Shown: piece after piece, positions 19,469 through 43,809 of the stretch | Layout: every line of letters starts with the position of its first letter | Numbering within the stretch: position 1 is the stretch's first letter | Origin: Pseudomonadota bacterium | Lineage (GTDB): Bacteria; Pseudomonadota; Gammaproteobacteria; UBA9214 | Direction: 5' to 3' | Assembly: GCA_039714155.1 (NCBI GenBank) | Contig: JBDLJX010000003.1 | Span: 1-63,328 of the forward strand | DNA: 63,328 nucleotides | Program-made: the position numbers and the translations under genes | Notes under the pieces: model-generated | What the model saw: only the letters and a program-made list of their open reading frames with translations | Database searches by the model: none | What the model was told of the DNA's origin: nothing

Positions 19469-19471
19469 CCT

Positions 19472-19547: not shown

Positions 19548-19571
19548 GGGATAATATCCATCAACAGGTAA

Positions 19572-23859: not shown

Positions 23860-24027
23860 TTCAAGCTGATAACAACGGCTACAGAACCAACACAGCTGAG
23901 TGCCGGTTTTTTTATTAAATGGCCACGAAATCCACGAAAGGACACGGAAAAATGTCTTTAAGGCTTTTATCCTTCCGTGTTTTTCCGTGGATTCCGTGGC
24001 AATAATATCTGTCTTTTTCAGGTTGAA
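23860..24027. mobile_element. ~170 bp MITE-like element (family E): TTCAANCTGA terminal IRs and internal CCACGGAA triplet hairpin
   Basis: Colinear with 53860-54030; inverted degenerate copy at 30783-30924. Confidence 0.75.
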
Positions 24028-25550: not shown

Positions 25551-26333
25551 ATGTCAAAACACACGCGTAGCAGATGCAAGTTGACCAGCAAGAAAGCACG
25601 AAGGCGTACAGACAACGAGTTAACAAACCACGACGGCGTCGTTATCGATATCAACGCCTTCGCCTCCCACCCCCCCGATAAACACCTTTCGCATTACCAG
25701 CATAACAATCACCCGATCATCCAGGCACGCAACCGCGCCCAGGGTGAATACATGGCGGCGATCAACACTCACCAGTTGACATTTGGTATTGGTCCTGCCG
25801 GTACCGGCAAAACCTTCTGTGCCACGGCAATGGCCGTGCAGGCATTCGAACACCGCCAGATCGATCGCATCATTTTCAGTCGCCCGGCGGTTGAGTCCGG
25901 CGAAAGCCTCGGCTTTCTGCCTGGCAAGGTGCAGGAAAAGCTCGAACCCTGGTTCGGCACCTTCCGCACTTATCTCAATGACATGCTCGGACGCGGCGTG
26001 GTTGACTGTGCACTGAAAAACGAACGCATCGTGTTTGAACCGCTCGCCTACATGCGCGGCAAGACCTTCGAGGATGCCTTCGTGATTCTCGACGAGGCGC
26101 AGAACTGTACCCGCTTGCAGCTGAAGATGTTCCTGACGCGCATCGGCGAACGCACCCGCGTGATCATCAACGGTGATACAAACCAGAGCGATATTGGTAA
26201 TGGCTCGGGACTCGTGGATGCCGCTACACGATTACGTGGCGTCAGCAACATTCACGTGCATGAGTTCGAGTGCGGCGATATTGTTCGCAGCAAACTGGTG
26301 CGGGATATTATCGAGCGTTACGAGACGGGCTGA
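25551..26333 (+). CDS. phoH: PhoH family ATPase
   Basis: GPAGTGKT, RPAVE..E.LGFLPG...EKL.PW, LAYMRGKTF..AFVILDEAQN, GD..QSD. Confidence 0.95.
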   Translation: MSKHTRSRCKLTSKKARRRTDNELTNHDGVVIDINAFASHPPDKHLSHYQHNNHPIIQARNRAQGEYMAAINTHQLTFGIGPAGTGKTFCATAMAVQAFEHRQIDRIIFSRPAVESGESLGFLPGKVQEKLEPWFGTFRTYLNDMLGRGVVDCALKNERIVFEPLAYMRGKTFEDAFVILDEAQNCTRLQLKMFLTRIGERTRVIINGDTNQSDIGNGSGLVDAATRLRGVSNIHVHEFECGDIVRSKLVRDIIERYETG

Positions 26334-27373: not shown

Positions 27374-27643
27374 TCACTTTACGGTTAATGATTTCTTTTT
27401 TTTCTCCCCGACATCTTCCACCTGCCAGCTAATCCGGATATTGAGCCGGTTGTGATTCTCTTCCCGGGTAGCGGTAATCTTGAGGTCCAGCAGACCCTCA
27501 GGCCTCATGGCAATTTTTTCATTCTCATCGCTGAAGGTAATTTTCCCCCTGGCAATACCGCTGGTGATGGACTTCAGAATATCCTGAATGGATTTTTCAT
27601 CCTGCAGTGACTGGTGGCGGAAACTTCTTTTCCCACTTCTCAT
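27374..27643 (-). CDS. Amphi-Trp domain protein (GAK system)
   Basis: Amphipathic helix, G.ITF, ..L.I.ISW ending. Confidence 0.85.
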   Translation of the reverse strand: MRSGKRSFRHQSLQDEKSIQDILKSITSGIARGKITFSDENEKIAMRPEGLLDLKITATREENHNRLNIRISWQVEDVGEKKKKSLTVK

Positions 27644-27702
27644 TTTTTACATATCCGTTGCCAGCATTCCCCGTTAACTGTGTCAGGCCCGGGAATGACA
27701 GT

Positions 27703-29037
27703 TTAGTGACTGATTGATGCCGGTTCAAAAACCTTGATATAAGGATAGTCGGTACTGATCCCCATCACCAGCCCTTCGGGTCTGAAGATAGTGACCGCCG
27801 CCCCTTGCCCTTCAAGCCCCTCTTTTTCCCTTGAGTTGCGGTCCAGCGTGGTATCGCATTCGAAATTGACGATGCCTTTCCTCAACATAACCCGCTGTCC
27901 ATGCAACAGGTTACGATGCCCGTGAACAATAGCATGCACACCGCTTTTTTTTCTGAGCATCCTGACACCATACCGGGTCAGGGGCATGTCTACCGGACGA
28001 TACTTGGTGCGAATAATATTGGCCATGGGGCCATAGTAGAAATCAAACGGGTCCCTGTACATTTGCCTCCGGAATTTCCGGTTGAGATGTTTCATGCCTT
28101 TTTCACTGATCAATTTCGCCATTCGGTCATCAATACCGGCGTGGACAAAAATAAAAGAACCTTCACGGCAACCAAGCTTCATACGTTTGTAAAACCACGC
28201 GTATTCACCTTTTGAATGTAAAAACAACTCCTGCCATTTCCTTGCAGCAGCGTACACCATACGCAGGGACAACCCTGCCTTCTCGCAATCCGCTTCGAAA
28301 TTCTCAAGCTTCTTGCGTAATCTCTGCACCTCACGCTCGATCGTCGAATCCGGCATCGCCCATACAGCCTGTTGTGGAAACTCCCGGAACCAGTTTTTCG
28401 AAGGATAGAGCCGTCGCCTGCATTCACGGCTACCCGGCACATCGTGCAATGCATCTTTTCCCTGCAGGTACCGGTCACGAATCTCGGTCAGGAAAGGAAT
28501 CACCTTGGGCCCCATGCGAATAAAAAAATGGTCGATTCTCGGGTCCGGCTCCATCCCGGCTGCCTTTATTCCAAGCATCATGCGGATATCATGATTACCG
28601 GCCAGCAGTTGCACGTCACCACCGCGATCAATCAGCAGTCGGATGACACGCAACAGTCGCAGTGCGCTTGGGCCCTTGTCAAAACAGTCGCCGCCGATAA
28701 GAAAACGCGCCTTCCTCCCGGCCCTGGTGAGCTTGAAATCCTTGTCTCCTGGCCCGGTTTTTTTCACACCGCCAGAGGCAACCAGTGAGGCGATAAAGGC
28801 ATCGGCATCGGCATGCAAATCGGAGATGAAATACACGGTCCGTTTCGGCCATACCCATGGCTCCCGGCCGATAGCCTTGCGCATTTCCTGCACATAGGCA
28901 GCACTGTGGTATTTGTCTTTTCTAACGGAAAGCTGTTTGCCCAGCATCCAGACCTGTCCCTGCCCCGGGAGGCTGGCCTTGATCCAGGATTCTCCCCTGT
29001 AACGCGGCAGGTATATATGTGAATTCTCCAGCTGCAT
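27703..29037 (-). CDS. Calcineurin-like metallophosphoesterase
   Basis: SDLHAD, GDCFDKG, GNHD, FVHAG, HGH; ATG 29037 preferred over 29151. Confidence 0.85.
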   Translation of the reverse strand: MQLENSHIYLPRYRGESWIKASLPGQGQVWMLGKQLSVRKDKYHSAAYVQEMRKAIGREPWVWPKRTVYFISDLHADADAFIASLVASGGVKKTGPGDKDFKLTRAGRKARFLIGGDCFDKGPSALRLLRVIRLLIDRGGDVQLLAGNHDIRMMLGIKAAGMEPDPRIDHFFIRMGPKVIPFLTEIRDRYLQGKDALHDVPGSRECRRRLYPSKNWFREFPQQAVWAMPDSTIEREVQRLRKKLENFEADCEKAGLSLRMVYAAARKWQELFLHSKGEYAWFYKRMKLGCREGSFIFVHAGIDDRMAKLISEKGMKHLNRKFRRQMYRDPFDFYYGPMANIIRTKYRPVDMPLTRYGVRMLRKKSGVHAIVHGHRNLLHGQRVMLRKGIVNFECDTTLDRNSREKEGLEGQGAAVTIFRPEGLVMGISTDYPYIKVFEPASISH

Positions 29038-29051
29038 GACCTGTTTCCCGC

Positions 29052-29753
29052 CTAGTCCGTGAAGCTGCTCTGTATGGTGCGCACCTTCCAGTCTCCCCCG
29101 ACATGGCGCCATTGCCCCCCGGGAAGATATTCGATCATGACCGGCCGGCAATGATGCATGCTGAGCTGCCTGAGTTGTTCAATCCCGAGCACACCAAGAT
29201 GGTACGCCGCATGACGAAAGGCAGCACCATGGCCCATGAAGATCTTTACACTGTCGTACTTTTCGCGTGGCAGTGCAGCCATGCATTGTGCCAGGTGTCC
29301 AGCCACCCGCTCGCCGGCCTCCAGCAGGGATTCGGCACCCTGTAACGGCAGACGGTAATGACTGTCCGCCTTCCAGTCATCAGGCGGATCGGAAACCCGC
29401 GGATCCTGCTGCAGGACCGCCTCGATCTGTGCTGTCGTGAGGTTGGCCAGGCAGCCGACACCTCTTTCAGCCAGCTCGTCATAACTCTCGATACGCAGCG
29501 TGGATGAAACCAGGTCGGCAAGCCTGTCAGCAAATATCACTGCAGTCTGCCAGGCACGAAGCATACGGGATGAATCAATGGAGGGTACCAGGGTCCAGTC
29601 ATTCCGGACGATCATGTCTTTCAGGGCTTGCGCACCTTCCTGCGCCCGGGTTTCTCCTTCGCGATTGAGTGGATACGGTTGGTGGGCACTGGGGGTATCC
29701 GGCAACTGCTGATAATCGCCATGTCGGATCAGGGCTGCAATGATTCTACCCAT
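29052..29753 (-). CDS. Histidine phosphatase family protein
   Basis: LIRHGDY, SSRMLRAWQTA, ELAERG, GHGA. Confidence 0.85.
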   Translation of the reverse strand: MGRIIAALIRHGDYQQLPDTPSAHQPYPLNREGETRAQEGAQALKDMIVRNDWTLVPSIDSSRMLRAWQTAVIFADRLADLVSSTLRIESYDELAERGVGCLANLTTAQIEAVLQQDPRVSDPPDDWKADSHYRLPLQGAESLLEAGERVAGHLAQCMAALPREKYDSVKIFMGHGAAFRHAAYHLGVLGIEQLRQLSMHHCRPVMIEYLPGGQWRHVGGDWKVRTIQSSFTD

Positions 29754-29756
29754 ATT

Positions 29757-30722
29757 TCAGAGCATAGCTGCCAGTTTGATAACCAACGGCCGCAGTTCCT
29801 CCTGCTTCAGCTGACTGGCTGCCTTTTCCGGGCTCACCCACTGACGCCCCCGGTGGCGTTCCTCCCACTCCTCATCCGGTATGACACGGGTTACTTTCAT
29901 TGGATATACAGCCACGGTACAGGTGGCGCCCCACTTTTCACATGTGTAGCTGCCGAGCGCGGTATCCGCAACCTCCCCTTCGATACCCGCCTCTTCCATT
30001 GCTTCCTTTGCGGCTGATTCCTGTGGTGAAAGCCCCGGGTCCTTGATGCCTTTCGGGACCACCAGATGATGTTGCTTACTGGACGCTATGACCAGTATTT
30101 CCGGTTTCCCGTCACGCATACGGTATGGAATCACGGATGACTGGGTATAGTAGTAAGCGGGCCGGTCACGCCAATCCTTGCCGTCCGGCGCCGGGTAGGG
30201 AAATTTCTTCGGCAACGTTTCAGGACGCGTAATGGAGTCAAGACGGGCGCATCCGGCGATCAGTGCACGCCAGTCAGCCGGCATCTTTAATCTGGCCAGA
30301 GTCGCTGTCGGCAACAGTTTGCCATCCTCCGGCGCCGGAACCGCTGCGCTCGCCAGCCAGACAAGCAACTCCTCCAGCCCCGGGTTATGTCCTACCAGCA
30401 TGACCCGGCCCGCGGTATCCGGGCAATCACCGAGTACCGCAAGCAATTCATCAATATCAGCTGCGTAAATACGCTTGTCCTGCTGTATCCCCTCGTCGCC
30501 CCTACCCATGGCCTTGCAGGCCTTCTGGGCCGTGACCAGCGCACGTTCCGCAGACGATGTGACAATAAGGTCAGGTACCATTTTCTGCTGCGCGAGCCAT
30601 ACCCCGATGCGCTGGGCACCCCGTTTGCCGCGGTCCTTCAGCGGGCGATGATAATCATCAACGCCGGTATTCCAGTCGGACTTGCCGTGGCGCAGCAGCA
30701 GCAGTTCACGTGTCATGATCAT
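29757..30722 (-). CDS. SixA-like histidine phosphatase fused to a NUDIX (DIPP-like) domain
   Basis: LLRHGKSDW...RPL..RG, VGHNPGL; C-terminal VIPYR...PKG...AAKEAMEEAG. Confidence 0.88.
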   Translation of the reverse strand: MIMTRELLLLRHGKSDWNTGVDDYHRPLKDRGKRGAQRIGVWLAQQKMVPDLIVTSSAERALVTAQKACKAMGRGDEGIQQDKRIYAADIDELLAVLGDCPDTAGRVMLVGHNPGLEELLVWLASAAVPAPEDGKLLPTATLARLKMPADWRALIAGCARLDSITRPETLPKKFPYPAPDGKDWRDRPAYYYTQSSVIPYRMRDGKPEILVIASSKQHHLVVPKGIKDPGLSPQESAAKEAMEEAGIEGEVADTALGSYTCEKWGATCTVAVYPMKVTRVIPDEEWEERHRGRQWVSPEKAASQLKQEELRPLVIKLAAML

Positions 30723-30782
30723 TTAAGCTCCTGTTATCCGCTCAGACCAGAATGGCACTTAAACTTAAGCACATGCTACTCA

Positions 30783-30924
30783 TTCAGTCTGAAAAAGAAT
30801 CATATTATCGCCACGGAATCCACGGAAAAACACGGAAATATAAATGCATTAAAAGACATTTTTCCGTGTCCTTTCGTGGATTCCGTGGCCAATTGGATAT
30901 TTATAATAGATGACACCAGTTGAG
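30783..30924. mobile_element. Inverted, degenerate family E element (core hairpin 30810-30889)
   Basis: Core is the near reverse complement of 23922-24000. Confidence 0.7.
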
Positions 30925-30938
30925 TAAGCAGCCTTCGC

Positions 30939-32027
30939 TCAGGCCAGTATCTCATGCAAACAGCACTCTGACAGGGCGGAAAAATCTACCCGCCCCCTGG
31001 CCACATAGACAGCAACACCTTCAAGTGCATCCAGATAGGCGGCTTCATCAAAGGCTGTCGTATCTTCCAGGAAGGTGCCATCCGGATACTGGTAGAACGG
31101 ACCGGGAGATTTCATCAAGGCACCCAGCAGGTCACGGTGTGCTGCCAGATCCACCTGCTCGACTTTCAGCTCCGTCTCACTGCCACGCTGCCAGTCAAGT
31201 ATCAGGAATGCCTCCAGGGGAGCCTCCGTTATGATCCGCCCGGGTCCGTAGACCCTGTCAATATGTACATCGTATTTTTCCTCGAGCTCCCAAAGCTCTG
31301 CACCTGGCAACTGCAGCAGCGCCTCGCGCTGTTGCGCAGGAATGAGGCTGTGCAGTTTTTGATTATGGACGATGGTACCGGGATTGATGCGCGGTAATTT
31401 CGGTATTCCGCGCGCCAGTATCTGGCCGGAACCGGCATGGATAAACAAACGATCGTTGGTCAGGTAGGACACCTCGTCATTGTCCAGCAGATGCAGCATC
31501 AGGGTAGACTTGCCACCACCGGAGAACCCGGCAATGCCGATGCCCTTGCCCCGGTAGACCAGCCCCGCTGCATGACAAATCAGCCAGCCCCGGTGTTGCA
31601 GCCAGTTCATGTACTGGGAGTTGATGAAATTGATCACCTGGTTGTTGTATTTCAGGCACGGACCAGCGGCGATCCGGTGACGCTCACTTTGCAAAAAAAC
31701 CATACCGGTACGCACCTTGCGAACCAGGCGTCCGCCCGGCAGGTCCGCATAGGAATCCTTGCGTCCGGTCTTGCCCGGCTCGCGTTTCCAGTCGATAAAG
31801 TCGATATCCAGCTCGGGCGCATCGCGTTCAATGGCAATGATGTCGACGTCCGGCGTCATTGCCTCGCTTGCGACATGCGAGAAATAATCGGCAAGGTCTG
31901 CCAGCAGTTCCGTGGAATTGGAGCGCAACCTCAGCATACATCCATCGAGCGCAAGATACAGTTCATCAGCGCACAAACGTGCTTCACCCTGCAATGCGCT
32001 CACGGCAGATTCTTCTGTGTAGCCCAT
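30939..32027 (-). CDS. HprK-related kinase B (GAK system)
   Basis: HAAGL......IAGFSGGGKSTL.L, NDRLF, PKLPRINPGTI; ATG 32027. Confidence 0.88.
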   Translation of the reverse strand: MGYTEESAVSALQGEARLCADELYLALDGCMLRLRSNSTELLADLADYFSHVASEAMTPDVDIIAIERDAPELDIDFIDWKREPGKTGRKDSYADLPGGRLVRKVRTGMVFLQSERHRIAAGPCLKYNNQVINFINSQYMNWLQHRGWLICHAAGLVYRGKGIGIAGFSGGGKSTLMLHLLDNDEVSYLTNDRLFIHAGSGQILARGIPKLPRINPGTIVHNQKLHSLIPAQQREALLQLPGAELWELEEKYDVHIDRVYGPGRIITEAPLEAFLILDWQRGSETELKVEQVDLAAHRDLLGALMKSPGPFYQYPDGTFLEDTTAFDEAAYLDALEGVAVYVARGRVDFSALSECCLHEILA

Positions 32028-32046
32028 CGTCGTGCCCCTCTCTTTC

Positions 32047-32937
32047 TCATGCCTCGAGTTGACGCAGCACATGTTCTGCATACAAACCGGCGGCATCGAT
32101 GCCAATCCCTTCGAGCGCACCACGGAAACCCCCGAATGCCGAGACTTCGAAAACAATCGGACCCTCATTTGTTTCGGCAACATCGACCGTGGTGAAGTCC
32201 ATATCAAACAGCGCCTGCGCCTGTTGTGCAAACTCTATCACCGCATCCGGCGGTGTATGCGCGGCATACCTGCCGCCACTGTGTATGGTCGTGTTCCAGG
32301 CATCGTCCCTCGACACCCTGGCATAGCTGCCGAGATATTCACCATCCAGGAACACCATCCCCAGGTCCCGGCCTGGCAGGTCGATTTTCTGCTGGATATA
32401 CATCATGGGATTGTCCACCTGAAAGGCGCGAATCTCACGCTCGATCTCGGCGTGGTCCCGGTGCGCGTCGATCACACACATGCCACGTGCCTTGGTGGAA
32501 TACAGGGGCTTGAAGACCGCACTGCCAAAATCCTGTACGGCCGTTAGCGCGGCCCCGACATCCTCGGTGACCCGGGTTGCCGGCATGGGAATGCCGGCGT
32601 TACGCAGGGTTACGGTACAGCTCAGGCGATCGATCAGACGCAGGATATGCTCCGCCCGGCTGAAGACCCGGACTCCGGCCTGCTCGGCCACGCGCAGCAG
32701 TTCCAGGCGATCCAGGGTATTGGGGTTGTAGCTGGCACTGATCTTTTTGACAATCAGGGCATCCAGCTGACACAAATCCTGATCCTGGAATAACAGGCGC
32801 TGCCGTTCCAGATCGAGGCTGACGCCAGCCATATCGATCACCAGCCGGTAGCCGGTCCTTGCCGCAACGGCATCGGCCAGGGTTTCCGTGGACCATTTCC
32901 CCGCTATGCCGATAACACCGATTTTGTATTCAGCCAA
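32047..32937 (-). CDS. GAK system ATP-grasp enzyme (RimK-like)
   Basis: IGVIG..GKWSTE.LADAV, DRLSCTVTL, KPLYSTKARGM, WNTTIHSGG, FEVSAFGGF; TTG start after AAGGAG. Confidence 0.9.
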   Translation of the reverse strand: MAEYKIGVIGIAGKWSTETLADAVAARTGYRLVIDMAGVSLDLERQRLLFQDQDLCQLDALIVKKISASYNPNTLDRLELLRVAEQAGVRVFSRAEHILRLIDRLSCTVTLRNAGIPMPATRVTEDVGAALTAVQDFGSAVFKPLYSTKARGMCVIDAHRDHAEIEREIRAFQVDNPMMYIQQKIDLPGRDLGMVFLDGEYLGSYARVSRDDAWNTTIHSGGRYAAHTPPDAVIEFAQQAQALFDMDFTTVDVAETNEGPIVFEVSAFGGFRGALEGIGIDAAGLYAEHVLRQLEA

Positions 32938-34570
32938 TGAAAATCTCCTTGACCGGAACACGAAACGATGCCGGATCCTTCAGGTCTGCAGCCAGCACCT
33001 GCTCGAGCAGGTAACGCGCACGCAGGAACATGGCGCGTGCCAGTGACTTGTCAAGGATAAACCGTGTCGATGTGGCAAACGAGCGCGCCAGCCCCAGGGC
33101 CAGGCGCAGCTCAAAGGTCCTGTCACCGGATTTCCCGGCATAGGCCGCTGCAAAACGGTAGAAATCCTGCGTCAGTATCAGGATACGTTTGCGTAGTGGT
33201 GCGTCGAAAATCTGCAGGCGGTAATTGGACACCATAAAAACCGATACATCCTGTACATAGTCCATGTAACGCGAACGATGCAGGTCAATGAAATTGATTT
33301 TCTTCTCCAGCGGGTCGTAGATGATGTTATCCACATTGAAATCGCCATGGATATAGACTGAAAATGGCGCCCTGATCCCGGCTTCGAGACGATGCGCCTG
33401 CTTCAGCAATGCGCCAAACGAAGCAACGGATTTGCCACAGATACAGCAGCCATCCTGCCGAAACTCCGGATGGATGGTATACACCTCCTCCAGGCGCCTT
33501 GAGAGTTGCCGCATGTAACCGGCGGCAACCGGTTTGCCGGTACGGGTCTCGCGCCATACCTTTCCCAGGGTACGGTTCAGCTGCTTCAGGGTCTGCCTGA
33601 GCAGACGGGTCGGCTCATGCAGTAATATCTGCTCGAATGTCTGTCCGGCCAGATGCTCAATCAATAACGAGGCAGACTGCCCGCGCTTGTGGTAGGAAAG
33701 AATCCTCGGCGCCAGACCCGGGTATATTTCCTGCCAGCTGTTCAGGCCCCTGCGCTCCTCCCGCAACTTGCGCTTCTTGCCGTCCTTGTAGATGGCTACA
33801 TAACCGGTATCTTCCTGGCCCGTTGCGCTGATACCGGAAATGCCGCTGCCTGAACGGGTTTCCGCAATCGGCTCGACCACCAGGTCTGCAGAGTTATTTG
33901 CCGTATCCAGCTGTTCCATTGAGGCACGCAGGGAATGGTAGCGATCAATGTTGATGGGCTGCCCCAGATTGGCGGATATAATGGCTTCGCTGATATTAAG
34001 CATGGCATCCCCCATCTGCTCAATGCCATGGACCAGGAACAGTCCCGCCACCAGGTCTTCCGTATGTTTCTTGCGCTTCAGTCCCGCGGTGTATTTTTTT
34101 ACCAGTTTTTGGCTGGCCTTGTCCAGGCTCGGCTTGATCCGGCCGATCTTGAGGGCCAGCCGGGTGTCATTTCGACGAATCGCAGGTTCAATCCGGTCAA
34201 GTCCCCTGCTGATTCCGCCCAGCATGGTTTTACAGGTGCCGGCGCCAGTGCAACGCCTGTTTTGCAGCTGATCCAGTTGCTGGATACATTCACGGCACAA
34301 GCCGGTGATACGTTCCAGGTCTGTCGCAATGGATTCAATGGCCCGCAGTGAAGCAATATCTGTACCTGATTCGCCGGCCTTGATGACCTGGTGGTGGCAG
34401 CTGTCGTGTATCCGCAGCATGAGATTATAGGCATAGCCGCTGCGGTCAAGAATACGCCGGGCAACGCTTGCCGAGGGGGTATCAAGATAGGCCTGTAGAT
34501 TGGAGACCTGGGACCCGACCTCGGCAATCAGGAAGCGGAGATTGTTGCGTATATTCTTCGAAATTCTCAT
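32930..34570 (-). CDS. PhoU-like domain fused to an APH/choline-kinase-like phosphotransferase
   Basis: N-terminal ATDLERI / IEQMGD PhoU-like repeats; HGDFNVDN and FIDL kinase motifs. Confidence 0.82.
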   Translation of the reverse strand: MRISKNIRNNLRFLIAEVGSQVSNLQAYLDTPSASVARRILDRSGYAYNLMLRIHDSCHHQVIKAGESGTDIASLRAIESIATDLERITGLCRECIQQLDQLQNRRCTGAGTCKTMLGGISRGLDRIEPAIRRNDTRLALKIGRIKPSLDKASQKLVKKYTAGLKRKKHTEDLVAGLFLVHGIEQMGDAMLNISEAIISANLGQPINIDRYHSLRASMEQLDTANNSADLVVEPIAETRSGSGISGISATGQEDTGYVAIYKDGKKRKLREERRGLNSWQEIYPGLAPRILSYHKRGQSASLLIEHLAGQTFEQILLHEPTRLLRQTLKQLNRTLGKVWRETRTGKPVAAGYMRQLSRRLEEVYTIHPEFRQDGCCICGKSVASFGALLKQAHRLEAGIRAPFSVYIHGDFNVDNIIYDPLEKKINFIDLHRSRYMDYVQDVSVFMVSNYRLQIFDAPLRKRILILTQDFYRFAAAYAGKSGDRTFELRLALGLARSFATSTRFILDKSLARAMFLRARYLLEQVLAADLKDPASFRVPVKEIFIG

Positions 34571-35043
34571 TACCAGTCGATGGTCCCCAGATAGACGGTG
34601 CCTGTGCCCTCGCTGGAATCCGCCAGGTACGGGGCCAGTGACCTCGGGTAAAGCGGCATGCCCGCAAGCTCGTCCAGCCTCGCCCAGACTACCTCTACCT
34701 GGTGCTTGTCCGGGTGGTGGCCGTTTATGGGCGCATAGTCATCAGGAACCGTGCACGCGAACAGAAACTCGACCAGGTGACGTGTGCCCCCGGGCGGTGT
34801 GTCCCGCGGCTTGAAACAGTCTGCCACGCAGACAAGTTCGCGGATTTCCACCCGGGTGCCGATTTCCTCCATGCATTCACGGTGCAGCGCCTGTTCCAGG
34901 GTCTCCCCGGGATCCTGGCCACCTCCCGGTAATGCAAACCGCTCACCCTCTTCATAGCCATCCTTGCGCAGCAGCAGGATGTGATTGTCCTGCAGAATCA
35001 GTGCGCGGGCAGCATTGCGTATCGGTGGGATAATCGATTCCAT
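34570..35043 (-). CDS. NUDIX hydrolase
   Basis: LPGGGQDPGETLEQALHRECMEEIG Nudix box. Confidence 0.9.
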   Translation of the reverse strand: MESIIPPIRNAARALILQDNHILLLRKDGYEEGERFALPGGGQDPGETLEQALHRECMEEIGTRVEIRELVCVADCFKPRDTPPGGTRHLVEFLFACTVPDDYAPINGHHPDKHQVEVVWARLDELAGMPLYPRSLAPYLADSSEGTGTVYLGTIDW

Positions 35044-35194
35044 TGGTCCACTGAAGTGGTTATTTTATTGCAATACCCAATCATACCAGTCAAATACCCG
35101 TATTATTGATAATAACCTGTGTAAACCAGCTTCACCCGGGAGCCTGTATCAAACAGGTCCACAAACGATCCTGAATGACTAAACGGACCTGACT

Positions 35195-36397
35195 GTGCCA
35201 GCACATAACCCCCTCAGAATCACCCGTACTGTACGAATACCTGACCGGGTGCGACTCAGTCGCTATCTGAAAACACCCGAACTGGGACCACGCATTTTGT
35301 TTTTCAGTGGCGGCACGGCCCTCACCGCTACGAGCCGTGTTTTAAAGCGCTACACGCACAACTCCATACACCTGGTCACCCCCTTTGATTCCGGTGGCAG
35401 CTCGGCAAAGCTGCGACAGGCCTTCTCCATGCCATCGATTGGCGACCTCCGCAGCCGGCTGGTAGCCCTCGCAGATGAAAACATTACCGGCCATCCGGAG
35501 GTTTACCAGTTATTCACCTATCGCTTTCCCGCCGATCAACCGGCCCGTGACCTGTTGGCCAGGCTCGACCTGATGAGCAGGGGCAAGGAACCGCTGGTGG
35601 CAGCCATCTCCAACCCCATGCGCCGTCTCATCCGCAACCAGCTGGGTTATTTCCGCAAGGCGATGCCGGATGATTTCGATCTGCGTGGCGCCAGCACCGG
35701 CAACCTGATTCTTGCCGGTGGCTACCTGAATAACCACAAGCATCTGGACCCGATCATTTTCCTGTTCTCGAAGCTGGTCAATGTACTGGGCACGGTACGC
35801 ACCGTGGTCAATGATAATCTGCACCTGGCGGCAGAGCTGGAGGATGGCAGTTACGTGACCGGCCAGCATCGGCTGACCGGCAAGGAAGTCGCACCATTGG
35901 GGTCCCCCGTCAGCCGGCTGTTCCTGTCCAGTCATCCCGACAAGCCCGTAGCCGCGAAAGCGGAAATGCGCAAAAAGAACCGCAGACTGATCCAGCAGGC
36001 AGAGCTCATCTGCTACCCTCCCGGCAGTTTCTATACGAGCCTGATAGCCAACCTGCTGCCGACAGGAGTTGGTTCAGCCATCGCCGGAACCGATTGCCCG
36101 AAAGTCTACATTCCCAACCTCGGGCAGGACCCGGAACAAATCGGTATGACCCTGGACAGTTCCGTACGGACCCTGCTCGATTACCTGCGTGCCGATAACA
36201 CGGACAAGTGTCCCAACGGGAAACTGCTGAATTTTGTGCTTATTGACAGCAAGCGGGGCAAATACCAATCATCACTGTCAACCCCGCTGATGCAGGAAGC
36301 GGCTATCCGGATCATCGATACCCGGCTGATCAGCAAACACAGTGCGCCTTATTATGATGCTGAACTGCTGGCTTCGGCCCTGCTGTCCCTGACATAG
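35195..36397 (+). CDS. GAK system CofD-like protein (CofD/UPF0052 family)
   Basis: FFSGGTAL, TPFDSGGSS..LR......GDLRSRL, GNLILAGGY, YPPGSFYTS, YIPN. Confidence 0.9.
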   Translation: MPAHNPLRITRTVRIPDRVRLSRYLKTPELGPRILFFSGGTALTATSRVLKRYTHNSIHLVTPFDSGGSSAKLRQAFSMPSIGDLRSRLVALADENITGHPEVYQLFTYRFPADQPARDLLARLDLMSRGKEPLVAAISNPMRRLIRNQLGYFRKAMPDDFDLRGASTGNLILAGGYLNNHKHLDPIIFLFSKLVNVLGTVRTVVNDNLHLAAELEDGSYVTGQHRLTGKEVAPLGSPVSRLFLSSHPDKPVAAKAEMRKKNRRLIQQAELICYPPGSFYTSLIANLLPTGVGSAIAGTDCPKVYIPNLGQDPEQIGMTLDSSVRTLLDYLRADNTDKCPNGKLLNFVLIDSKRGKYQSSLSTPLMQEAAIRIIDTRLISKHSAPYYDAELLASALLSLT

Positions 36398-38041: not shown

Positions 38042-38204
38042 ACCCGAAAAATTCATAAATCATGCGCAATCTCGCTTGTCTCTTGACTCCACAAGGAATA
38101 TTTCCTCGGTCGGCCGTAATCACCGATACGCCACTCCCTCGAAAATTTCCTTGTGAAACCAATATCCTGCGCGATCTTTGCGCAGATTTATGAAATTTCC
38201 GGGC
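38042..38204 (-). mobile_element. 163 bp ERIC-like element (subfamily C) flanked by TA on both sides
   Basis: Near-identical reverse complement at 60413-~60560; homologous to subfamily B. Confidence 0.8.
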
Positions 38205-38293
38205 TAAAGAGGGGAAACGCCGGAGTGCACGACAAAACCGACAGGTCGAACACAAACCTCGATCCACCGAATCGGGGAGGGTCGGGCCAGGGT

Positions 38294-39178
38294 GTGTCGT
38301 CCACCTACGCCATCGGCGACGTCCAGGGCTGCTTCGATGACCTGCTGAGGCTCCTGGAGAAGCTTGACTTCGATCCGGACGTCGACCGTCTCTGGTTTAC
38401 CGGAGATCTCGTCAACAAGGGACCCAACTCACTGGAGTTGTTGCGCTTCGTGCGCGGCCTCGGCAACGCCGCCATCAGCGTACTCGGCAACCACGACCTG
38501 CACCTCCTGGCCGTGGCCGCCGGGGCGGTCAAGATCCGCAAGAAGGACACTATCGCCGAGATCCTCGACGCCCCCGACTGCGAGGAGTTCCTGTTCTGGC
38601 TGCGCCACCAACCGGTCCTGCACCACAGCGAGACCCTCGGTTTCACCATGGTCCATGCCGGGCTCCCTCCCCAGTGGGATCTGGATAAAGCCCGGCAATG
38701 CGCCCGCGAGCTGGAGACCGTGCTGCAGAATTCCGGTTACGAGGACCTGTTCCTGCACCTTCCGGGAGACGGACCGCTGCGCTGGCGGGAAGATCTGGAC
38801 GGCTGGGGGCGCCTTCGTTTCATCACCAACTGCTTCACCCAGCTGCGCTGGTGCGACCTCAGCGGCCGCATCGATCTGCCGGGGAAAAGACGAACGGCCC
38901 CGGCGAAGAAAAAACGCTCGCGGCCCTGGTTTGAGATCCCGCACCGTGCCAGCAAACCGCTGTGGATTCTTTTCGGACACTGGGCGAAGCTCGTAGTCGC
39001 CCCGCCGGCCAGAGGGGCCGCGGGTGTGGTCCCCCTGGACACCGGCTGTGCCAACGGCGGCCGGTTCACCGCGTTTCGACTCGAAGACTGGCGCCACTTC
39101 AAGCTAAAGTGCAAGAACAAGGCCGTGCCCTGGAGAAGTCTCGCGACGTCCGACCGTGACGCCCAGGAAGACCCATGA
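38294..39178 (+). CDS. apaH: Symmetrical Ap4A hydrolase ApaH
   Basis: YAIGDVQGC, LWFTGDLVNKGP.SL, LGNHDLHLL, MVHAG, FGHWA, LDTGC. Confidence 0.9.
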   Translation: MSSTYAIGDVQGCFDDLLRLLEKLDFDPDVDRLWFTGDLVNKGPNSLELLRFVRGLGNAAISVLGNHDLHLLAVAAGAVKIRKKDTIAEILDAPDCEEFLFWLRHQPVLHHSETLGFTMVHAGLPPQWDLDKARQCARELETVLQNSGYEDLFLHLPGDGPLRWREDLDGWGRLRFITNCFTQLRWCDLSGRIDLPGKRRTAPAKKKRSRPWFEIPHRASKPLWILFGHWAKLVVAPPARGAAGVVPLDTGCANGGRFTAFRLEDWRHFKLKCKNKAVPWRSLATSDRDAQEDP

Positions 39179-39272: not shown

Positions 39273-40526
39273 TTACGTTTCCTCACTGGCCGGAACACCG
39301 GCAGGATGTCGTATATTGACCTGGTCAATACTGCGGTCTGATGCCCTGACAATCCTGACTTCCAGATTGTCGATTGTGAATATTTCATCCTCACACGGAA
39401 TATATTCCGTATGGTTCAGGATCCACAGGCTTACTGTATCGGTTGGTTTGCCGGGAAGATCCACATCAAAGAACTCTTCCACCACCCGTAGTTCAGCCGA
39501 GCCTTCCACAATAATCTCATTCCTGGAAACACTGTCGACATCGAGTGGTGCAACATCACTTTCATCATAGATTTCGCCGACCAGCTCCTCGAGCAGGTCT
39601 TCGAGTGTCGCGATTCCCCGCACATCACCGTATTCATCCACGACGATTGAGAAAAGGCGGTTACGCCGTCTTAACGTGGCAAACAGATCATCGATGGCCT
39701 GGTACTGCGACACAAACAGCGGCTCGTGGGCAATATTGCCCAGCCGTTCTTCCATCTGGCCGTTCGCGGAAGCCCTGAGCAGATCCCTCAGGTACAGCAC
39801 CTTCGTAAAGTTATCGTTTTGTCCTTCAAACAAAGGTATCCGCGAGTACCGCTCCTGTGAGACCACCGGCAGCGCCTCGGCAACCGTAAGGGTGGCATCC
39901 AGGGAAAATATCCGGCCCTTGGGCGTCATGACATCCCTGACTTTCAGGTCATTGAAGGCAAATACCCGCTCGATAATTTCCCTTTCATCATGTTCGATGG
40001 CGCCTTCCTCGACACCGTATCCCAGCATACCGATGAGTTCCAACTCGGTAACCGTTGGATCGCTCTTGCCACCCGTCAGGCGATGTACCCAGTTGGTAAA
40101 GTGGCCAAAGAACCAGACCAGCGGATAGATCAGGCGCATGAATAGCAGCAACGGGTAAGAGATGAACAGTGAAATGCGCTCGGAATAACGTGTTGCCAGA
40201 CTCTTGGGGGTAATTTCACCAAATACCAGAATAAACAGGGTAAGCACACCAACGGCAATACCGGGTCCGGCACTGCCAAATTCCCGTATTGCAACGACCG
40301 TCGCCAGTGCCGAAGCCGCAATATTGACCAGGTTGTTCCCTATCAGGATTGTCGTCAGCATTCGCGAAGGGTCTTTCTTGAGCTGGTACAGCGCCTTTGC
40401 GCCGGCACGGTCTTCCTTGACAAGGGCCTCCGCCCGCGCCATCGACAATGCTACCAGGGCCGTCTCCGAACCGGAAAAAATACCGGAGAAAACCAGCAAG
40501 ACCAGCAGAATACCAATCTCAATCAT
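39273..40526 (-). CDS. Hemolysin/CNNM family (DUF21-CBS-CBS-CorC_HlyC) membrane protein
   Basis: FSGSETAL, ILIGNNLVN, FGEITPK, YSRIP, VDEYG..G..TLEDLLEELVGEI.DE. Confidence 0.92.
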   Translation of the reverse strand: MIEIGILLVLLVFSGIFSGSETALVALSMARAEALVKEDRAGAKALYQLKKDPSRMLTTILIGNNLVNIAASALATVVAIREFGSAGPGIAVGVLTLFILVFGEITPKSLATRYSERISLFISYPLLLFMRLIYPLVWFFGHFTNWVHRLTGGKSDPTVTELELIGMLGYGVEEGAIEHDEREIIERVFAFNDLKVRDVMTPKGRIFSLDATLTVAEALPVVSQERYSRIPLFEGQNDNFTKVLYLRDLLRASANGQMEERLGNIAHEPLFVSQYQAIDDLFATLRRRNRLFSIVVDEYGDVRGIATLEDLLEELVGEIYDESDVAPLDVDSVSRNEIIVEGSAELRVVEEFFDVDLPGKPTDTVSLWILNHTEYIPCEDEIFTIDNLEVRIVRASDRSIDQVNIRHPAGVPASEET

Positions 40527-40736: not shown

Positions 40737-42284
40737 ATGCGTATCGAATTTATCATTCCCGAAGATCTGGACTACGAAGACCTGCAGTCAACGCTTCGGA
40801 AAAACACCCGGATGCTCCCGGAACCGGTACGGACAATCTACAGGACGTACTACGACAGTTTTGACTGGCGCCTGTATCAGAACGATTCCCTGCTTGAAGA
40901 CACCCGTGACGGCAATGAACACACACTGGTGTGGCAGACCCTGAAGGGCGAATACCGCTGCCCCCGGTTAAAGCTGCATGCAGCACCCCGGTTTGCCAGA
41001 GACCTGCCACATGGACCGTTTCGCAACAGCCTGGAACCGGTGCTTGAAATGCGCGAACTCATCCCGAAAGTCAGGATCCGTTCCCGGATCAATAGCCTGC
41101 GCATCCTGAACAGGGACGAAAAAACCGTGGCCTGGCTGACAGTCGAGGAAAACACCCTGCTGCGGCAGAAAGGGACACGCTCCGGAAAACTTGATAAGCG
41201 GGCTGTAGTGATTCCGGTCAGGGGCTACCCGAAACCCGGCAAGGCGCTGGCAAGACGCCTTCAGGAGCAGGGTCTGACCCCCGCGCAGGATGACCTCATG
41301 CTGGCGGCCCTGTCCACTACCGGTGCAATACCGGCCAGCTATTCTTCCAAGCTGGACCTGAAGCTGGATCCCGCCATGCGTGCAGACAGGACAACCAAGG
41401 TCATCCTGCACCGGCTCCTCGATATCATGTTACAAAACGAGGCTGGCACCCGCACGGGTACGGATACCGAATTCCTGCATGATTTCCGTGTCGCAATCCG
41501 CCGCACCCGTTCGGCCCTCACCCAGATCAAGGCGGTATTTCCGAAACGCATCGTTGACCGTTATAAAACCGAATTTGCCTGGCTCGGCGGGGTAACCAGC
41601 CCCAGCCGTGACCTGGATGTGTATTTACTGAATTTTGATGAATACCGTGACAGCCTGTCAGCCGCCATGCAGGCCGATATCGAACCACTGCGTGATTTTC
41701 TCATCAGGCACCAGAAGACTGAACACAGGACCCTGGTCAAGGCACTGGATTCGGCGCGCTACCGCCGGCTGATCAGGAACTGGCGTCTGTTTCTGGACCA
41801 GCCGGTCAACGAACGCTCGACACTGAAAAATGCAGGCCGGCCCGTCATTGAGGTTGCCTGCGAACGGATCTGGCGTGTCTACCGGTGCGCCATCCGGGAG
41901 GGTAATGCGATCAATGCAGAGTCGCCCGCGGATGCCCTGCATGAACTGCGCAAGACCTGCAAGAAACTGCGATATCTCATGGAGTTCTTCCAGAGCCTGT
42001 ATACGACCGGTAATATCAAGGAGTTAATCCGGGTACTCAAGACACTGCAGGACAACCTGGGTAATTTTCAGGATTACGAGGTACAGGTCACCACATTGAA
42101 AAAATTCAGCCACCAGATGGTTGCCGAAGGTACAGTCCCTCCTGATACGCTGCTCGCCATGGGTATGCTTATCGACGGCCTGGAACGGCGCCAGCATCAG
42201 GCGCGGGAAGAATTTGCCGGCCGGTTCGCGAATTTCTACCTGCAGGAAAATCAGGACCGGTTCCGGAAACTGTTCGCATATTAA
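40737..42284 (+). CDS. CYTH-like + CHAD domain protein (polyphosphate-binding family)
   Basis: YYDSFDWRL; E.LHDFRVA.RR.RS; LHELRK.CKKLRY..E, LQD.LG..QD. Confidence 0.9.
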   Translation: MRIEFIIPEDLDYEDLQSTLRKNTRMLPEPVRTIYRTYYDSFDWRLYQNDSLLEDTRDGNEHTLVWQTLKGEYRCPRLKLHAAPRFARDLPHGPFRNSLEPVLEMRELIPKVRIRSRINSLRILNRDEKTVAWLTVEENTLLRQKGTRSGKLDKRAVVIPVRGYPKPGKALARRLQEQGLTPAQDDLMLAALSTTGAIPASYSSKLDLKLDPAMRADRTTKVILHRLLDIMLQNEAGTRTGTDTEFLHDFRVAIRRTRSALTQIKAVFPKRIVDRYKTEFAWLGGVTSPSRDLDVYLLNFDEYRDSLSAAMQADIEPLRDFLIRHQKTEHRTLVKALDSARYRRLIRNWRLFLDQPVNERSTLKNAGRPVIEVACERIWRVYRCAIREGNAINAESPADALHELRKTCKKLRYLMEFFQSLYTTGNIKELIRVLKTLQDNLGNFQDYEVQVTTLKKFSHQMVAEGTVPPDTLLAMGMLIDGLERRQHQAREEFAGRFANFYLQENQDRFRKLFAY

Positions 42285-42300
42285 CCAGGGAACCCCCAGT

Positions 42301-43250: not shown

Positions 43251-43601
43251 ATGAAACCAGCCATTATCGATATTCCCGGCATCGGGCCGGCAGCAGCAGA
43301 AACACTGGCCGAACATCGCATCAGGAGTCTTGCCGGCCTTGCCAGGGCATCTGTCGAGAAAATCACCGCCATTCCCGGTTTCAGTGAAGCACGCGCCACC
43401 CAGGTCATCGCAGCCGCCGCCGAGCTGCTTGCCGCATCAGGAACAACCCCGGCAGCCAAAGACGCAGGTGAGGAATCCGGGAAAAAGACCAAGTCTGGCG
43501 GCAAAGGCAAAAAAGACAAGAAGAAAAAAGACAAGGGAAAAGGCAAGAATAAGGGTAAAGGTAAGGGCAAGAACAAGGGAAAGAAGAAAGGCAAGAAATA
43601 G
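43251..43601 (+). CDS. Helix-hairpin-helix protein with Lys/Gly-rich tail
   Basis: IPGIGPAAA..L and IPGFSEARA HhH pair; tail KGKKDKKKKDKGKGKNKGKGKGKNKGKKKGKK. Confidence 0.85.
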   Translation: MKPAIIDIPGIGPAAAETLAEHRIRSLAGLARASVEKITAIPGFSEARATQVIAAAAELLAASGTTPAAKDAGEESGKKTKSGGKGKKDKKKKDKGKGKNKGKGKGKNKGKKKGKK

Positions 43602-43667
43602 TACTGACGCCACTAACCGGCATCGTCGACTCCTGAAAACCATTTCGGATCAGCCGGCAGTTGCTGT

Positions 43668-43691
43668 GCAGGAGCGGGCTCTAGCCCGCGA
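43668..43691 (+). repeat. Family A REP
   Basis: gcaggagcgggctctagcccgcga. Confidence 0.7.
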
Positions 43692-43809
43692 ACCCTGTCT
43701 CCCCCGGCCACCACTTTCGCCAGTAAGCTGGCTCCTGCAACCAACTGCCCGGGCATGCGACCATTGTGTGCCCATCATATGCACCAGTCATTCCGGCCAC
43801 TCTCGAAAT

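Follow-up and report, generated by a model that had tools for sequence, protein, structure and literature searches.

The GAK gene system and its PhoU-kinase fusion: a candidate phosphate-linked modification cycle centred on the small amphi-Trp protein

Background

What does the bacterial GAK system do? This question is raised by a locus in a 63,328-nucleotide (nt) stretch of DNA from a gammaproteobacterium of the UBA9214 lineage (GenBank assembly GCA_039714155.1, contig JBDLJX010000003.1), the whole of which is referred to here as the window. Between positions 27374 and 36397 it carries genes for a small amphi-Trp protein, an HprK-related kinase, an ATP-grasp enzyme and a CofD-like protein together with genes for a PhoU-kinase fusion and several hydrolases. 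The GAK neighbourhood is already catalogued in NCBIfam/TIGRFAM but uncharacterised, and a literature search with the families, their accessions and the enzyme combinations returned no work on the function of the system, the sole match being a proteomics table. An initial annotation of the window had described nine genes in a divergent arrangement and a system without an assigned pathway; all nine genes were recovered, and both the family scores and the empty literature search bear this description out.

What is new here is a redefined core of the system, the recognition of two gene architectures, a candidate acceptor motif on amphi-Trp, gene fusions, a partial linkage to phosphate, Mg2+ and polyphosphate (polyP) genes, and cultured carriers. 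We propose, with a probability of roughly 0.4, that the GAK proteins carry out a phosphate-gated cycle of phosphorylation and ligation which is centred on the small amphi-Trp protein and reset by hydrolases.

Results and discussion

The GAK locus and its core

GAK families were assigned with the NCBIfam/TIGRFAM models TIGR04354 to TIGR04358 and their curated cut-offs, and the remaining domains with Pfam. Four of the families are found in the window above their cut-offs. These are amphi-Trp, a type 1 protein of 89 amino acids (aa) (27374-27643, minus strand; TIGR04354, 62 bits against a cut-off of 31), the HprK-related kinase B with the P-loop GGGKST (30939-32027, minus strand, in an open reading frame (ORF) extending to 32231; TIGR04355, 352.4 bits against 200), the GAK ATP-grasp enzyme of the RimK/LysX/MptN clade (32047-32961, minus strand; TIGR04356, 451 bits against 300) and the GAK CofD-like protein (35195-36397, plus strand; TIGR04357, 550.7 bits against 340), whose gene is divergent from the operon that holds the other eight. 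The likely start of kinase B is M69 (32027), because it fits the family and leaves a gap of 19 nt after the ATP-grasp gene. The first gene of the operon encodes a stand-alone NUDIX hydrolase (34570-35043, minus strand; Pfam NUDIX, 64.9 bits) with the canonical NUDIX box GGQDPGETLEQALHRECMEEIG, and the second a fusion of a PhoU domain with an APH/EcKL-type kinase (32930-34570, minus strand; Pfam PhoU, APH and EcKL). Between kinase B and amphi-Trp lie the genes for a fusion of a SixA-like histidine phosphatase with a NUDIX domain (29757-30722, minus strand; Pfam His_Phos_1 and NUDIX; motifs RHG and GHNP, variant NUDIX box GIKDPGLSPQESAAKEAMEEAG), for a branch 1 histidine phosphatase (29052-29753, minus strand; Pfam His_Phos_1, 63 bits; motifs RHG and GHG) and for a PPP/ApaH-like metallophosphoesterase (27703-29037, minus strand, in an ORF to 29151 with the likely start at 29037; Pfam Metallophos, 31.9 bits). 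Five hydrolase domains are thus encoded, one more than the four phosphatase/NUDIX activities counted initially. The GAK genes are closely spaced and often overlap, and the G+C content of the region is even, that of the GAK locus equalling that of its surroundings. Amphi-Trp is present in the window as a single copy and a type 2 copy is absent. For the fifth GAK family, XXXCH (TIGR04358), a tblastn search of the window with four XXXCH proteins gave nothing better than an E-value of 0.03.

But is this set of nine genes more than a chance juxtaposition? One genome per species was scanned with a kinase B profile (275 relatives, 80 loci kept), and the window proteins were compared by BLAST with the ORFs of these gammaproteobacterial loci. 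In nearly every locus of sufficient length the genes stand in the order NUDIX, PhoU-APH, ATP-grasp, kinase, SixA-NUDIX, His-phosphatase, metallophosphoesterase and amphi-Trp; in this order they are present in 59, 66, 73, 80, 68, 60, 55 and 60 of the 80 loci, with protein identities of about 50-90%. Because the eight-gene operon recurs in order across most of the 80 loci (about 50-60), the nine-gene set is no chance juxtaposition. As a unit, the eight genes go back to the ancestor of a large clade of Gammaproteobacteria. Departures from the order occur in L055, L065, L067 and L073, where the His-phosphatase and metallophosphoesterase genes have moved ahead of the kinase gene, and in L062 and L070, which lack these two genes. 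The window stems from a marine or marine-sediment gammaproteobacterium, and the metagenome-assembled genomes (MAGs) closest to it are labelled Pseudomonadota or Ectothiorhodospiraceae. The gammaproteobacterial operon was also met in two MAGs labelled 'Halobacteria archaeon' (L015 and L016; kinase identity 72-73%, with the same CNNM-CHAD-ParA-PstS synteny as in the window), whose contigs are most likely mis-binned or mislabelled. A search for sequencing runs that contain window sequence found no RNA runs, and all matches were DNA metagenomes of marine, marine-sediment or brine origin.

A profile built from the most distant members of kinase B retrieved carriers outside the Gammaproteobacteria, in Desulfobacterota (Desulfonema, Maridesulfovibrio, Desulfohalovibrio, Desulfobulbaceae), Nitrospinota (Nitronauta) and Zixibacteria, and 11 annotated contexts were examined. 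They show a second regular layout, [XXXCH] - Y - amphi-Trp type 1 - PhoU-APH kinase - ATP-grasp - kinase B - CofD-like - [amphi-Trp type 2]. Compared with it, the window has amphi-Trp last instead of early, an inverted CofD-like gene, a single amphi-Trp and neither XXXCH nor Y, both of which are absent from the 80 gammaproteobacterial loci as well. The XXXCH family was verified on the locus of Maridesulfovibrio hydrothermalis, L084 (TIGR04358, 109 bits). Y is a family of about 385 aa encoded upstream of amphi-Trp in L081-L091, with copies that are 53-58% pairwise identical to that of L084 (5856-6998) across phyla; Y has no match in Pfam or NCBIfam, and a profile search of the PDB gave none either. 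Its invariant motifs are HWHPEF, IPTQHN, VEVDC, IPHPEQFWPILLA, WNPQS and GDDxH, to which IPHPEQFWP can be added, and from these His/Asp motifs Y may be a PHP-like metal-dependent phosphoesterase. Outside the Proteobacteria, Y is a core member of the GAK system. Y was also considered as a homologue of the metallophosphoesterase of the window, which was rejected (hhalign probability 0.3%).

The proteobacterial layout was found, in a shorter form and through a search of plasmid records, in cultured Rhodobacterales. In Qingshengfaniella alkalisoli the CofD-like gene is divergent from NUDIX - phosphotransferase - ATP-grasp - kinase - His-phosphatase - metallophosphoesterase - amphi-Trp, and Tritonibacter mobilis (plasmid 3, NZ_LR027555.1, 93.5-99.4 kb) carries phosphotransferase - ATP-grasp - kinase - His-phosphatase - metallophosphoesterase - amphi-Trp; the carrier plasmids are large, non-mobilisable, chromid-like replicons. 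Taken together, the sequences from five lineages indicate that the invariant core of the system consists of amphi-Trp type 1, the PhoU-kinase, the ATP-grasp enzyme and the HprK-like kinase. A hydrolase, or a candidate for one, accompanies this core in every lineage, and the set differs by lineage: in Proteobacteria the His-phosphatase and the metallophosphoesterase replace Y (with XXXCH), and the clade of the window adds NUDIX and SixA-NUDIX, the window being the proteobacterial variant with the richest hydrolase complement among the loci examined. The initial annotation had seen a system expanded with phosphatases, which holds for the two NUDIX-containing genes but not for the phosphatases as an addition, since they stand in the place of Y and XXXCH. 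That one core is paired with different hydrolases in each lineage implies either a phospho-mark that can be reversed or a compound subject to turnover. GAK is a seven- to nine-gene system of at least five bacterial lineages, carried by sulfur oxidisers, animal symbionts, sulfate reducers, nitrite oxidisers and marine Rhodobacterales, and its cultured carriers are Tritonibacter mobilis, Qingshengfaniella alkalisoli, Marinobacterium lacunae (AK27), Maridesulfovibrio hydrothermalis and Desulfonema ishimotonii.

The PhoU-kinase

The PhoU domain of the fusion protein is full-length (about residues 5-215) and precedes a kinase domain (about residues 230-546) with the Brenner motif HGDFNVDN and with FIDL. 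A profile built from 10 orthologues finds solved PhoU structures with E-values of 2e-21 to 4e-11, best over residues 17-217, and with its kinase half aligns to APH(3') at an E-value of 3e-4; the Brenner motif is conserved in 63 of 63 orthologues. The gene for the fusion adjoins the ATP-grasp gene in the window, in L081, L082, L084-L089, L091, L092 and L093 and in 66 of the 80 gammaproteobacterial loci, and the protein is encoded in every GAK locus that reaches its position, in Gamma- and Alphaproteobacteria, Desulfobacterota, Nitrospinota and Zixibacteria. By its distribution the PhoU-kinase is therefore a universal core member rather than an add-on, and the initial description of the system as expanded does not apply to it. 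Its universal presence gives the system a direct molecular link to phosphate sensing.

The PhoU half resembles the PhoU of the Pst/PhoR systems in that its N-terminal 215 residues align with whole structures and both ER..GD-type repeats are present. It differs in being fused to an APH-type kinase, an architecture of which we found no described example, and in scoring only 39 bits with TIGR02135, under the cut-off of 130. A separate PhoU protein is encoded within the pst operon of the same window (45053-46138), and this protein is a fusion too, with LMWPc (low-molecular-weight phosphotyrosine-phosphatase or arsenate-reductase-like), so that the window contains two different PhoU fusions.

Amphi-Trp and kinase B

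The amphi-Trp protein of the window carries the N-terminal motif FRHQSLQD, which in type 1 proteins across phyla takes the form F-x-[HYF]-[EQ]-[ST]-[LIV]-Q-D. The motif is kept from Gammaproteobacteria to Zixibacteria and its hydroxyl residue is always present, as Ser or, once, as Thr, which pinpoints a specific candidate acceptor residue. In the window protein the motif is followed by a helix, by strands with a conserved Trp (ISW) and by a charged tail; amphi-Trp tails are charged and of low complexity. Type 2 proteins are without the N-terminal motif and are encoded after the CofD-like or the kinase gene. The AlphaFold2 (AF2) model of amphi-Trp is of low confidence (predicted local distance difference test (pLDDT) 58), the motif segment being predicted as flexible with a pLDDT below 50, and a Foldseek search with this poor model gave meaningless matches (best E-value 0.5). 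A very weak resemblance to amphi-Trp is seen in the N-terminus of XXXCH (BLAST E-value 1.5). In the proteome of the sulfur-disproportionating Dissulfuribacter thermophilus an amphi-Trp domain protein appears in the table of the most abundant proteins (PMC13490349), which suggests that amphi-Trp proteins can be very highly expressed.

Kinase B forms a family of 344 clusters at 50% identity, all of about 360 aa (exhaustive HMMER search, E<=1e-30), and its P-loop is conserved in 80 of 80 gammaproteobacterial orthologues; further invariant or conserved residues are K90, R100, K104, H152, N191-D192-R193, K210, R213, E249, K251, D253 and K306. A Pfam scan of the window protein, including Hpr_kinase_C (PF07475), gave nothing at E<=0.01 and a PDB sequence search with the family profile returned generic P-loop matches only; distant members of the family match Pfam Hpr_kinase_C and ScmC. 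The AF2 model is confident (pLDDT 90.8). With it, Foldseek places ATP-dependent phosphoenolpyruvate (PEP) carboxykinases at the top, across the full length and both domains (TMq about 0.5, E-value 1e-7), and HprK/P structures match the P-loop domain only (E-value about 2e-6, TMq 0.24). The arrangement is like that of HprK/P with HPr or Crh in that a P-loop kinase of the same fold class adjoins a partner of about 90 aa with a conserved Ser/Thr. It is unlike it in that only the C-terminal domain of the window kinase superposes on HprK/P, the N-terminal domain resembling PEP carboxykinase, and in that amphi-Trp has no detectable similarity to HPr, though the amphi-Trp model is poor. In lasso-peptide clusters, homologues of HPr kinase transfer phosphate to a Ser of the precursor peptide, in some cases repeatedly (PMC8498205); unlike in those clusters, lasso-peptide maturation genes are not seen in the GAK operon or among its immediate neighbours.

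Three proteins join kinase B to other parts. In P0446, from L083, a type 2 amphi-Trp domain is fused at the kinase C-terminus, a sequence that links two parts of the system directly. P0388 joins a phosphohexomutase to a kinase fragment; because half of each protein is missing and the join may be an assembly or gene-calling artefact, it is counted as adjacency only. P0315, one called protein, has an N-terminal stretch of CofD after the kinase, which may be a read-through.

The ATP-grasp enzyme, the CofD-like protein and the hydrolases

The nearest solved structures of the ATP-grasp enzyme are LysX (5k2m, 3vpd, 1uc8), RimK (4iwx, 5zct) and ArgX (3vpb), enzymes that attach amino acids to small proteins. 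Among curated families the second-best after TIGR04356 is MptN (143.7 bits against a cut-off of 350), and the scores for the RimK family (93 against 143), LysX (85.5 against 275.6) and CofF (33.7 against 300) are likewise below cut-off. The gene for the enzyme stands, as in the pairs RimK-S6 and LysX/ArgX-LysW, together with genes for a small partner and a kinase. Different from LysW, which ends in EDWGE, and from S6, which ends in EE, amphi-Trp has no acidic C-terminus but a basic and lineage-variable tail (...KKKKSLTVK in the window), and the remaining genes of the lysine and arginine pathways are absent here.

For the CofD-like protein the nearest solved structures are of the YvcK/UPF0052 group (2o2z, 2hzb, 2ppv; E-values 1e-23 to 5e-26), CofD proper not being among the matches, and the score with the YvcK model TIGR01826 is 129 bits against a cut-off of 196. 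GlmR, a studied member of the YvcK/UPF0052 group, is a regulator that binds UDP-N-acetylglucosamine (UDP-GlcNAc) as its ligand (PMC7525490, PMC6171935). The CofD-like gene is divergent and adjacent in 38 of the 80 gammaproteobacterial loci and not adjacent in L082, L085 and L093; it is a frequent but the least constant GAK neighbour, and therefore less likely to encode an obligatory pathway step. The pairing of a CofD-fold protein with an ATP-grasp enzyme resembling alpha-L-glutamate ligases recalls CofD and CofF of cofactor F420 and MptN of methanopterin synthesis. Here, in contrast, the scores are far below the equivalog cut-offs and the CofD-like protein groups with YvcK; moreover, CofC, CofE, CofG and CofH are not seen in the locus, and CofC and CofE are absent among the scanned neighbours. 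Maridesulfovibrio hydrothermalis L084 has a second CofD-family gene (18687-19829) about 7 kb downstream of its GAK cluster, which adjoins a gene for an AP-endonuclease-2/xylose-isomerase-like TIM-barrel protein.

Among the hydrolases, the stand-alone NUDIX protein has orthologues in 59 of the 80 gammaproteobacterial loci and in Qingshengfaniella, and in none of the GAK loci examined outside the Proteobacteria; counting the window protein with its orthologues, 42 of 59 sequences keep the strict NUDIX box. The SixA-NUDIX protein is specific to the gammaproteobacterial version of GAK. Its SixA-like domain, which scores 44.5 bits with TIGR00249 (sixA), below the cut-off of 74.5, keeps RHG in 66 and GHNP in 67 of 68 orthologues, and its NUDIX domain has the strict box in none and the variant box in 55 of the 68. 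Orthologues of the His_Phos_1 protein are encoded in 60 of the 80 loci, the family is annotated in both Rhodobacterales loci, and in Desulfobulbaceae L087 a His_Phos_1 gene follows the CofD-like gene. The metallophosphoesterase, whose gene is likewise part of the Rhodobacterales loci, has the motifs SDLHA, GDCFDKG, GNHD and HGH, with GD..D[KR]G, GNH[DE] and HGH each conserved in 55 of 55 sequences, and shows weak matches to ApaH and to the Clostridium thermocellum phosphatase 4j6o.

Phosphate genes in the neighbourhood

That the GAK locus of the window is embedded in an island of phosphate and polyP genes, as had been noted initially, is confirmed by the genes for PhoH (25551-26333) on one side and, on the other, for a CYTH-CHAD polyP-binding protein (40737-42284, plus strand), the pst-phoBR genes (43992-51685, plus strand: pstS at 43992, phoU-LMWPc at 45053, pstC, pstA, pstB, pstB, phoB at 49677 and phoR at 50369) and, on the minus strand, Pit (PHO4; 54644-55909), PhoU_div (DUF47; 55960-56640) and a two-domain PPK2 (56881-58452). 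The genes listed from CYTH-CHAD to PPK2 were assigned with Pfam, as were those for a CNNM/CorC Mg2+ transporter (39273-40526, minus strand) and a ParA-like ATPase (about 42310-43053, plus strand). The region further contains two metallophosphoesterase genes outside the operon (38153-39178 and 52412-53869) and a gene for a purple-acid-phosphatase-like protein (16579-18927). An ORF at 43330-43857 (orf43330) was considered as a partner of the ParA-like protein and rejected, as its Pro/Arg/Lys-rich translation looks like a spurious frame.

How general is this linkage? For counting, the gammaproteobacterial loci were clustered at 80% kinase identity into 49 clusters, of which only the 10-kb flanks were covered. 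Homologues of the window's phosphate genes lie within the flanks of 13 of the 49 clusters: the window's own clade has them in 6 of 6 clusters, with CNNM, CHAD, ParA and PstS in synteny, the other clusters in 7 of 43. The co-occurrence of GAK with ppk2, CHAD and pst that the initial annotation had put up as a test thus stands for the clade of the window and fails as a rule elsewhere, where it is seen in a minority only, including 4 of 11 non-gammaproteobacterial loci (pstCAB-phoU in Desulfonema, PIN-PhoH in Desulfohalovibrio, a PstS-like protein in L088 and a PhnD-like protein in L089) and 0 of 2 Rhodobacterales loci. Cases from other gammaproteobacterial lineages are CHAD with ParA at differing positions in L021, L067 and L073, pstCAB-phoU in L046, PPK2, Pit and PhoU_div in L065, Pit and PhoU_div in L071, and phoBR, Pit and PhoU_div in L079. 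CNNM is found in 11, CHAD in 9 and ParA in 9 of the 49 clusters. As a rough estimate, a random 20-kb stretch of a 4-Mb genome has a Pho-type gene about 5% of the time, and the association with phosphate genes is therefore several-fold above chance, yet far from general. The fused PhoU domain is the universal link to phosphate and the gene neighbourhood a weaker signal.

In a Pfam census of the two nearest genes per side in the 43 clusters outside the window's clade (125 neighbours), CNNM/CorC/CBS proteins account for 7-8, PhoU, glycogen phosphorylase and HisKA for 3 each, and Na/Pi cotransporter, CHAD, CYTH and LMWPc for 2 each. Mg2+ transporters are thus the commonest GAK neighbours, with CNNM/CorC genes (among others in L031, L034, L067 and L071) often in tandem pairs, and the Desulfonema locus L081 has an MgtE gene (12764-14191) on the side opposite pstCAB-phoU. 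A CYTH-CHAD gene followed by a ParA-like gene recurs beside GAK in varied orientation, in the window (40737-43053), L021, L067 and L073/L074. In Desulfobulbaceae L087 (3746-4877) an extra amphi-Trp gene lies directly before a ParA-like gene that is 42% identical to that of the window. These arrangements hint at a ParA subfamily tied to amphi-Trp or polyP granules.

A possible cycle on amphi-Trp

How could these proteins act together? In the cycle that we propose, the HprK-like kinase would phosphorylate amphi-Trp, possibly repeatedly, on the conserved Ser/Thr of the F-x-H-[EQ]-[ST]-L-Q-D motif, and the ATP-grasp enzyme would attach an amino acid, probably a glutamate-like one, either to amphi-Trp itself or to a group that amphi-Trp carries, by analogy with LysX-LysW and RimK-S6. 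The PhoU domain would couple the APH-type kinase to the phosphate status of the cell, as PhoU does with PstB and PhoR, and the CofD-like protein may be either a nucleotide-ligand-binding partner of the YvcK/GlmR type or a transferase that forms phosphodiesters. For reset, the NUDIX domains would cut P-O-P bonds, and the metallophosphoesterase and the two histidine phosphatases would remove phosphoesters. The output would probably be control of phosphate, Mg2+ or polyP handling, a proposal made because CNNM, CHAD, ParA, Pst and Pit neighbours recur. A protein substrate is suggested because LysX, ArgX, RimK, HprK/P and the lasso-peptide kinases all act on small proteins or peptides, and we favour the amphi-Trp cycle because it explains the co-conservation of the small protein, the precedents of both enzyme families and the exchange of hydrolases between lineages. 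If it holds, it would represent a new bacterial signalling chemistry. In eukaryotes, PPIP5K/Vip1 and DIPP combine an ATP-grasp-fold enzyme, a histidine phosphatase and a NUDIX protein in a system linked to phosphate sensing, a functional analogy; with Pfam no sequence relationship of the window proteins to the inositol-pyrophosphate ATP-grasp kinase families was detected.

A number of observations weigh against the proposed cycle. Amphi-Trp as the modified acceptor is itself a tentative proposal drawn from sequence and precedents. The C-terminus of amphi-Trp is neither conserved nor acidic, so that a C-terminal ligation in the manner of RimK or LysX is not supported, and in the motif the clade of the window has Q rather than E. 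Small molecules are the usual substrates of NUDIX, APH-type and CofD-type enzymes. The resemblance of kinase B to PEP carboxykinase, a small-molecule enzyme, and its invariant Lys and Arg residues would suit an anionic metabolite, the best match of the ATP-grasp enzyme outside GAK is MptN, a small-molecule glutamate ligase, and a sugar phosphate is suggested by the phosphohexomutase gene that in two lineages stands beside the kinase gene or is joined to it. Finally, the divergent intergenic region (35044-35194), aligned for 11 close relatives, has on the operon strand a sigma-70-like promoter, TTGACT-N16-TACAAT, that is conserved in the clade of the window and looks constitutive, and neither inspection nor phylogenetic footprinting of close relatives revealed a convincing Pho box in it. 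A more elaborate version of the amphi-Trp cycle makes the protein a new small acceptor or carrier whose N-terminal Ser/Thr is phosphorylated or polyphosphorylated by the HprK-like kinase, perhaps decorated with a phosphodiester by the CofD-like protein and with an amino acid by the ATP-grasp enzyme, and cleared by the hydrolases as erasers, the whole being a pyro- or polyphosphorylation switch that reads phosphate through the PhoU-kinase and controls polyP, Mg2+ and phosphate handling; in this full form we regard it as rather unlikely.

But could the enzymes act on something other than a protein? According to the initial annotation they build and recycle a phosphorylated small molecule for storage, signalling or a polyP-linked purpose, and amphi-Trp would be only a scaffold or regulator. 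In such a route the two kinases would yield a mono- or diphosphorylated intermediate, the CofD-like protein would form a phosphodiester, the ATP-grasp enzyme would add glutamate as MptN and CofF do, and the hydrolases would degrade the product. The CofD-like and MptN/CofF-like proteins would then mirror the pair that builds the tails of F420 and methanopterin (144 bits with MptN), and the route gains from the full-length resemblance of kinase B to PEP carboxykinase with its many invariant basic residues, from the usual role of APH/EcKL kinases and NUDIX hydrolases as small-molecule enzymes, from the phosphohexomutase gene after the cluster in Nitronauta L082 and its join to the kinase fragment of P0388, from glycogen phosphorylase occurring three times among the nearest neighbours, and from Mg2+ transporters as the commonest neighbours, as expected with a polyanionic product. 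Against this, a nucleotidyltransferase equivalent to CofC, which would make the activated donor, was not found in the loci examined, and the CofD-like protein is nearer to the non-enzymatic YvcK/GlmR than to CofD and is not in the neighbourhood of about half of the loci. Nor does a small-molecule route provide a role for the co-conserved amphi-Trp, its Ser/Thr motif and its fusion to the kinase, and a wholesale replacement of hydrolases between lineages is easier to reconcile with the reset of a protein mark than with a defined catabolic route. The small-molecule route is a strong rival of the amphi-Trp cycle, if somewhat less probable. A phosphorylated storage metabolite, as first suggested, is possible, and nothing was found that favours it over the protein-centred cycle; if true, it would mean a novel phosphorylated compound in organisms relevant to phosphorus cycling in sediments. 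The CofD-like protein could alternatively be a checkpoint of the YvcK/GlmR kind. With a nucleotide sugar as its ligand, which the NUDIX proteins would trim, it would act together with the kinases to match carbon flow through hexosamine, glycogen or sugar phosphates to the phosphate supply. The Bacillus cluster yvcI(NUDIX)-yvcJ-glmR-whiA-crh similarly joins NUDIX, P-loop, CofD-like and small HPr-like proteins. Besides having YvcK/UPF0052 proteins as the nearest solved relatives of the CofD-like protein in its favour, this idea is in line with GlmR, a UDP-GlcNAc-binding protein that alternates between YvcJ and GlmS as its partners (PMC7525490), and with the PGM/GlmM-like mutase gene beside the L082 cluster and the glycogen phosphorylase neighbours. 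Yet the CofD-like protein is the least constant member of the system and misses the YvcK cut-off (129 against 196 bits with TIGR01826), homologues of GlmS, WhiA and YvcJ are not seen in the loci, and the ATP-grasp enzyme is left unexplained, all of which makes such a checkpoint improbable.

Could amphi-Trp instead have a structural role? As a building block or adaptor of polyP granules or a similar condensate it would be placed by the ParA-like ATPase and have its charge tuned by the enzymes. The CYTH-CHAD and ParA-like pair in its rearranged positions (L021, L067, L073/L074 and the window's clade), the extra amphi-Trp gene before the 42%-identical ParA-like gene of L087, the charged low-complexity tails and the abundance of amphi-Trp in Dissulfuribacter thermophilus (PMC13490349) would all fit, but ParA and CHAD are absent from 40 of the 49 gammaproteobacterial clusters and from most non-gammaproteobacterial loci. 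Such a role would also overlap with the favoured cycle, and as a separate explanation we consider it very improbable. An anti-phage defence or toxin module on a mobile island is far less probable still. In its favour, some defence systems include NUDIX and kinase genes, PADLOC matches the stand-alone NUDIX protein weakly (PDC-S07, E-value 5.5e-11) and the kinase gene is found on large Rhodobacterales plasmids. Eight of the nine proteins, however, have no PADLOC match, there are no phage or PHROG matches, the locus shares the G+C content of its surroundings and a stable, clade-wide synteny with housekeeping phosphate genes, and the plasmids are non-mobilisable and chromid-like; on PADLOC, PHROGs, phage searches and synteny this explanation was rejected.

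Further features of the window

A 78-nt palindrome resembling repetitive extragenic palindromic (REP) elements (arms CCACGGAATCCACG / CGTGGATTCCGTGG) occurs in the window in three copies, all of them intergenic (23923-23999, 30811-30888 and 53925-54002). The copy at 30811-30888 lies within the GAK operon, where a gap of 216 nt separates the kinase B gene from the SixA-NUDIX gene. As RNA the hairpin folds with -51 kcal/mol (z -8.9), and an Rfam scan of 26-45 kb gave only chance miRNA-like matches on it. The hairpin in the operon may be a point of mRNA processing or attenuation that splits the operon into two halves.

At a distance from the GAK locus, five consecutive ORFs of 475, 326, 221, 185 and 307 aa on the minus strand (10872-15457) have no Pfam match at E<=1e-4 and form an unannotated operon upstream of the genes for a TPR protein and the purple-acid-phosphatase-like protein. 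The gene at 58611-59801 has an unusual architecture, with an ATP-cone domain joined to an AAA-type P-loop region, and lies next to the genes for PPK2 and a sigma-54 activator (60578-61984).

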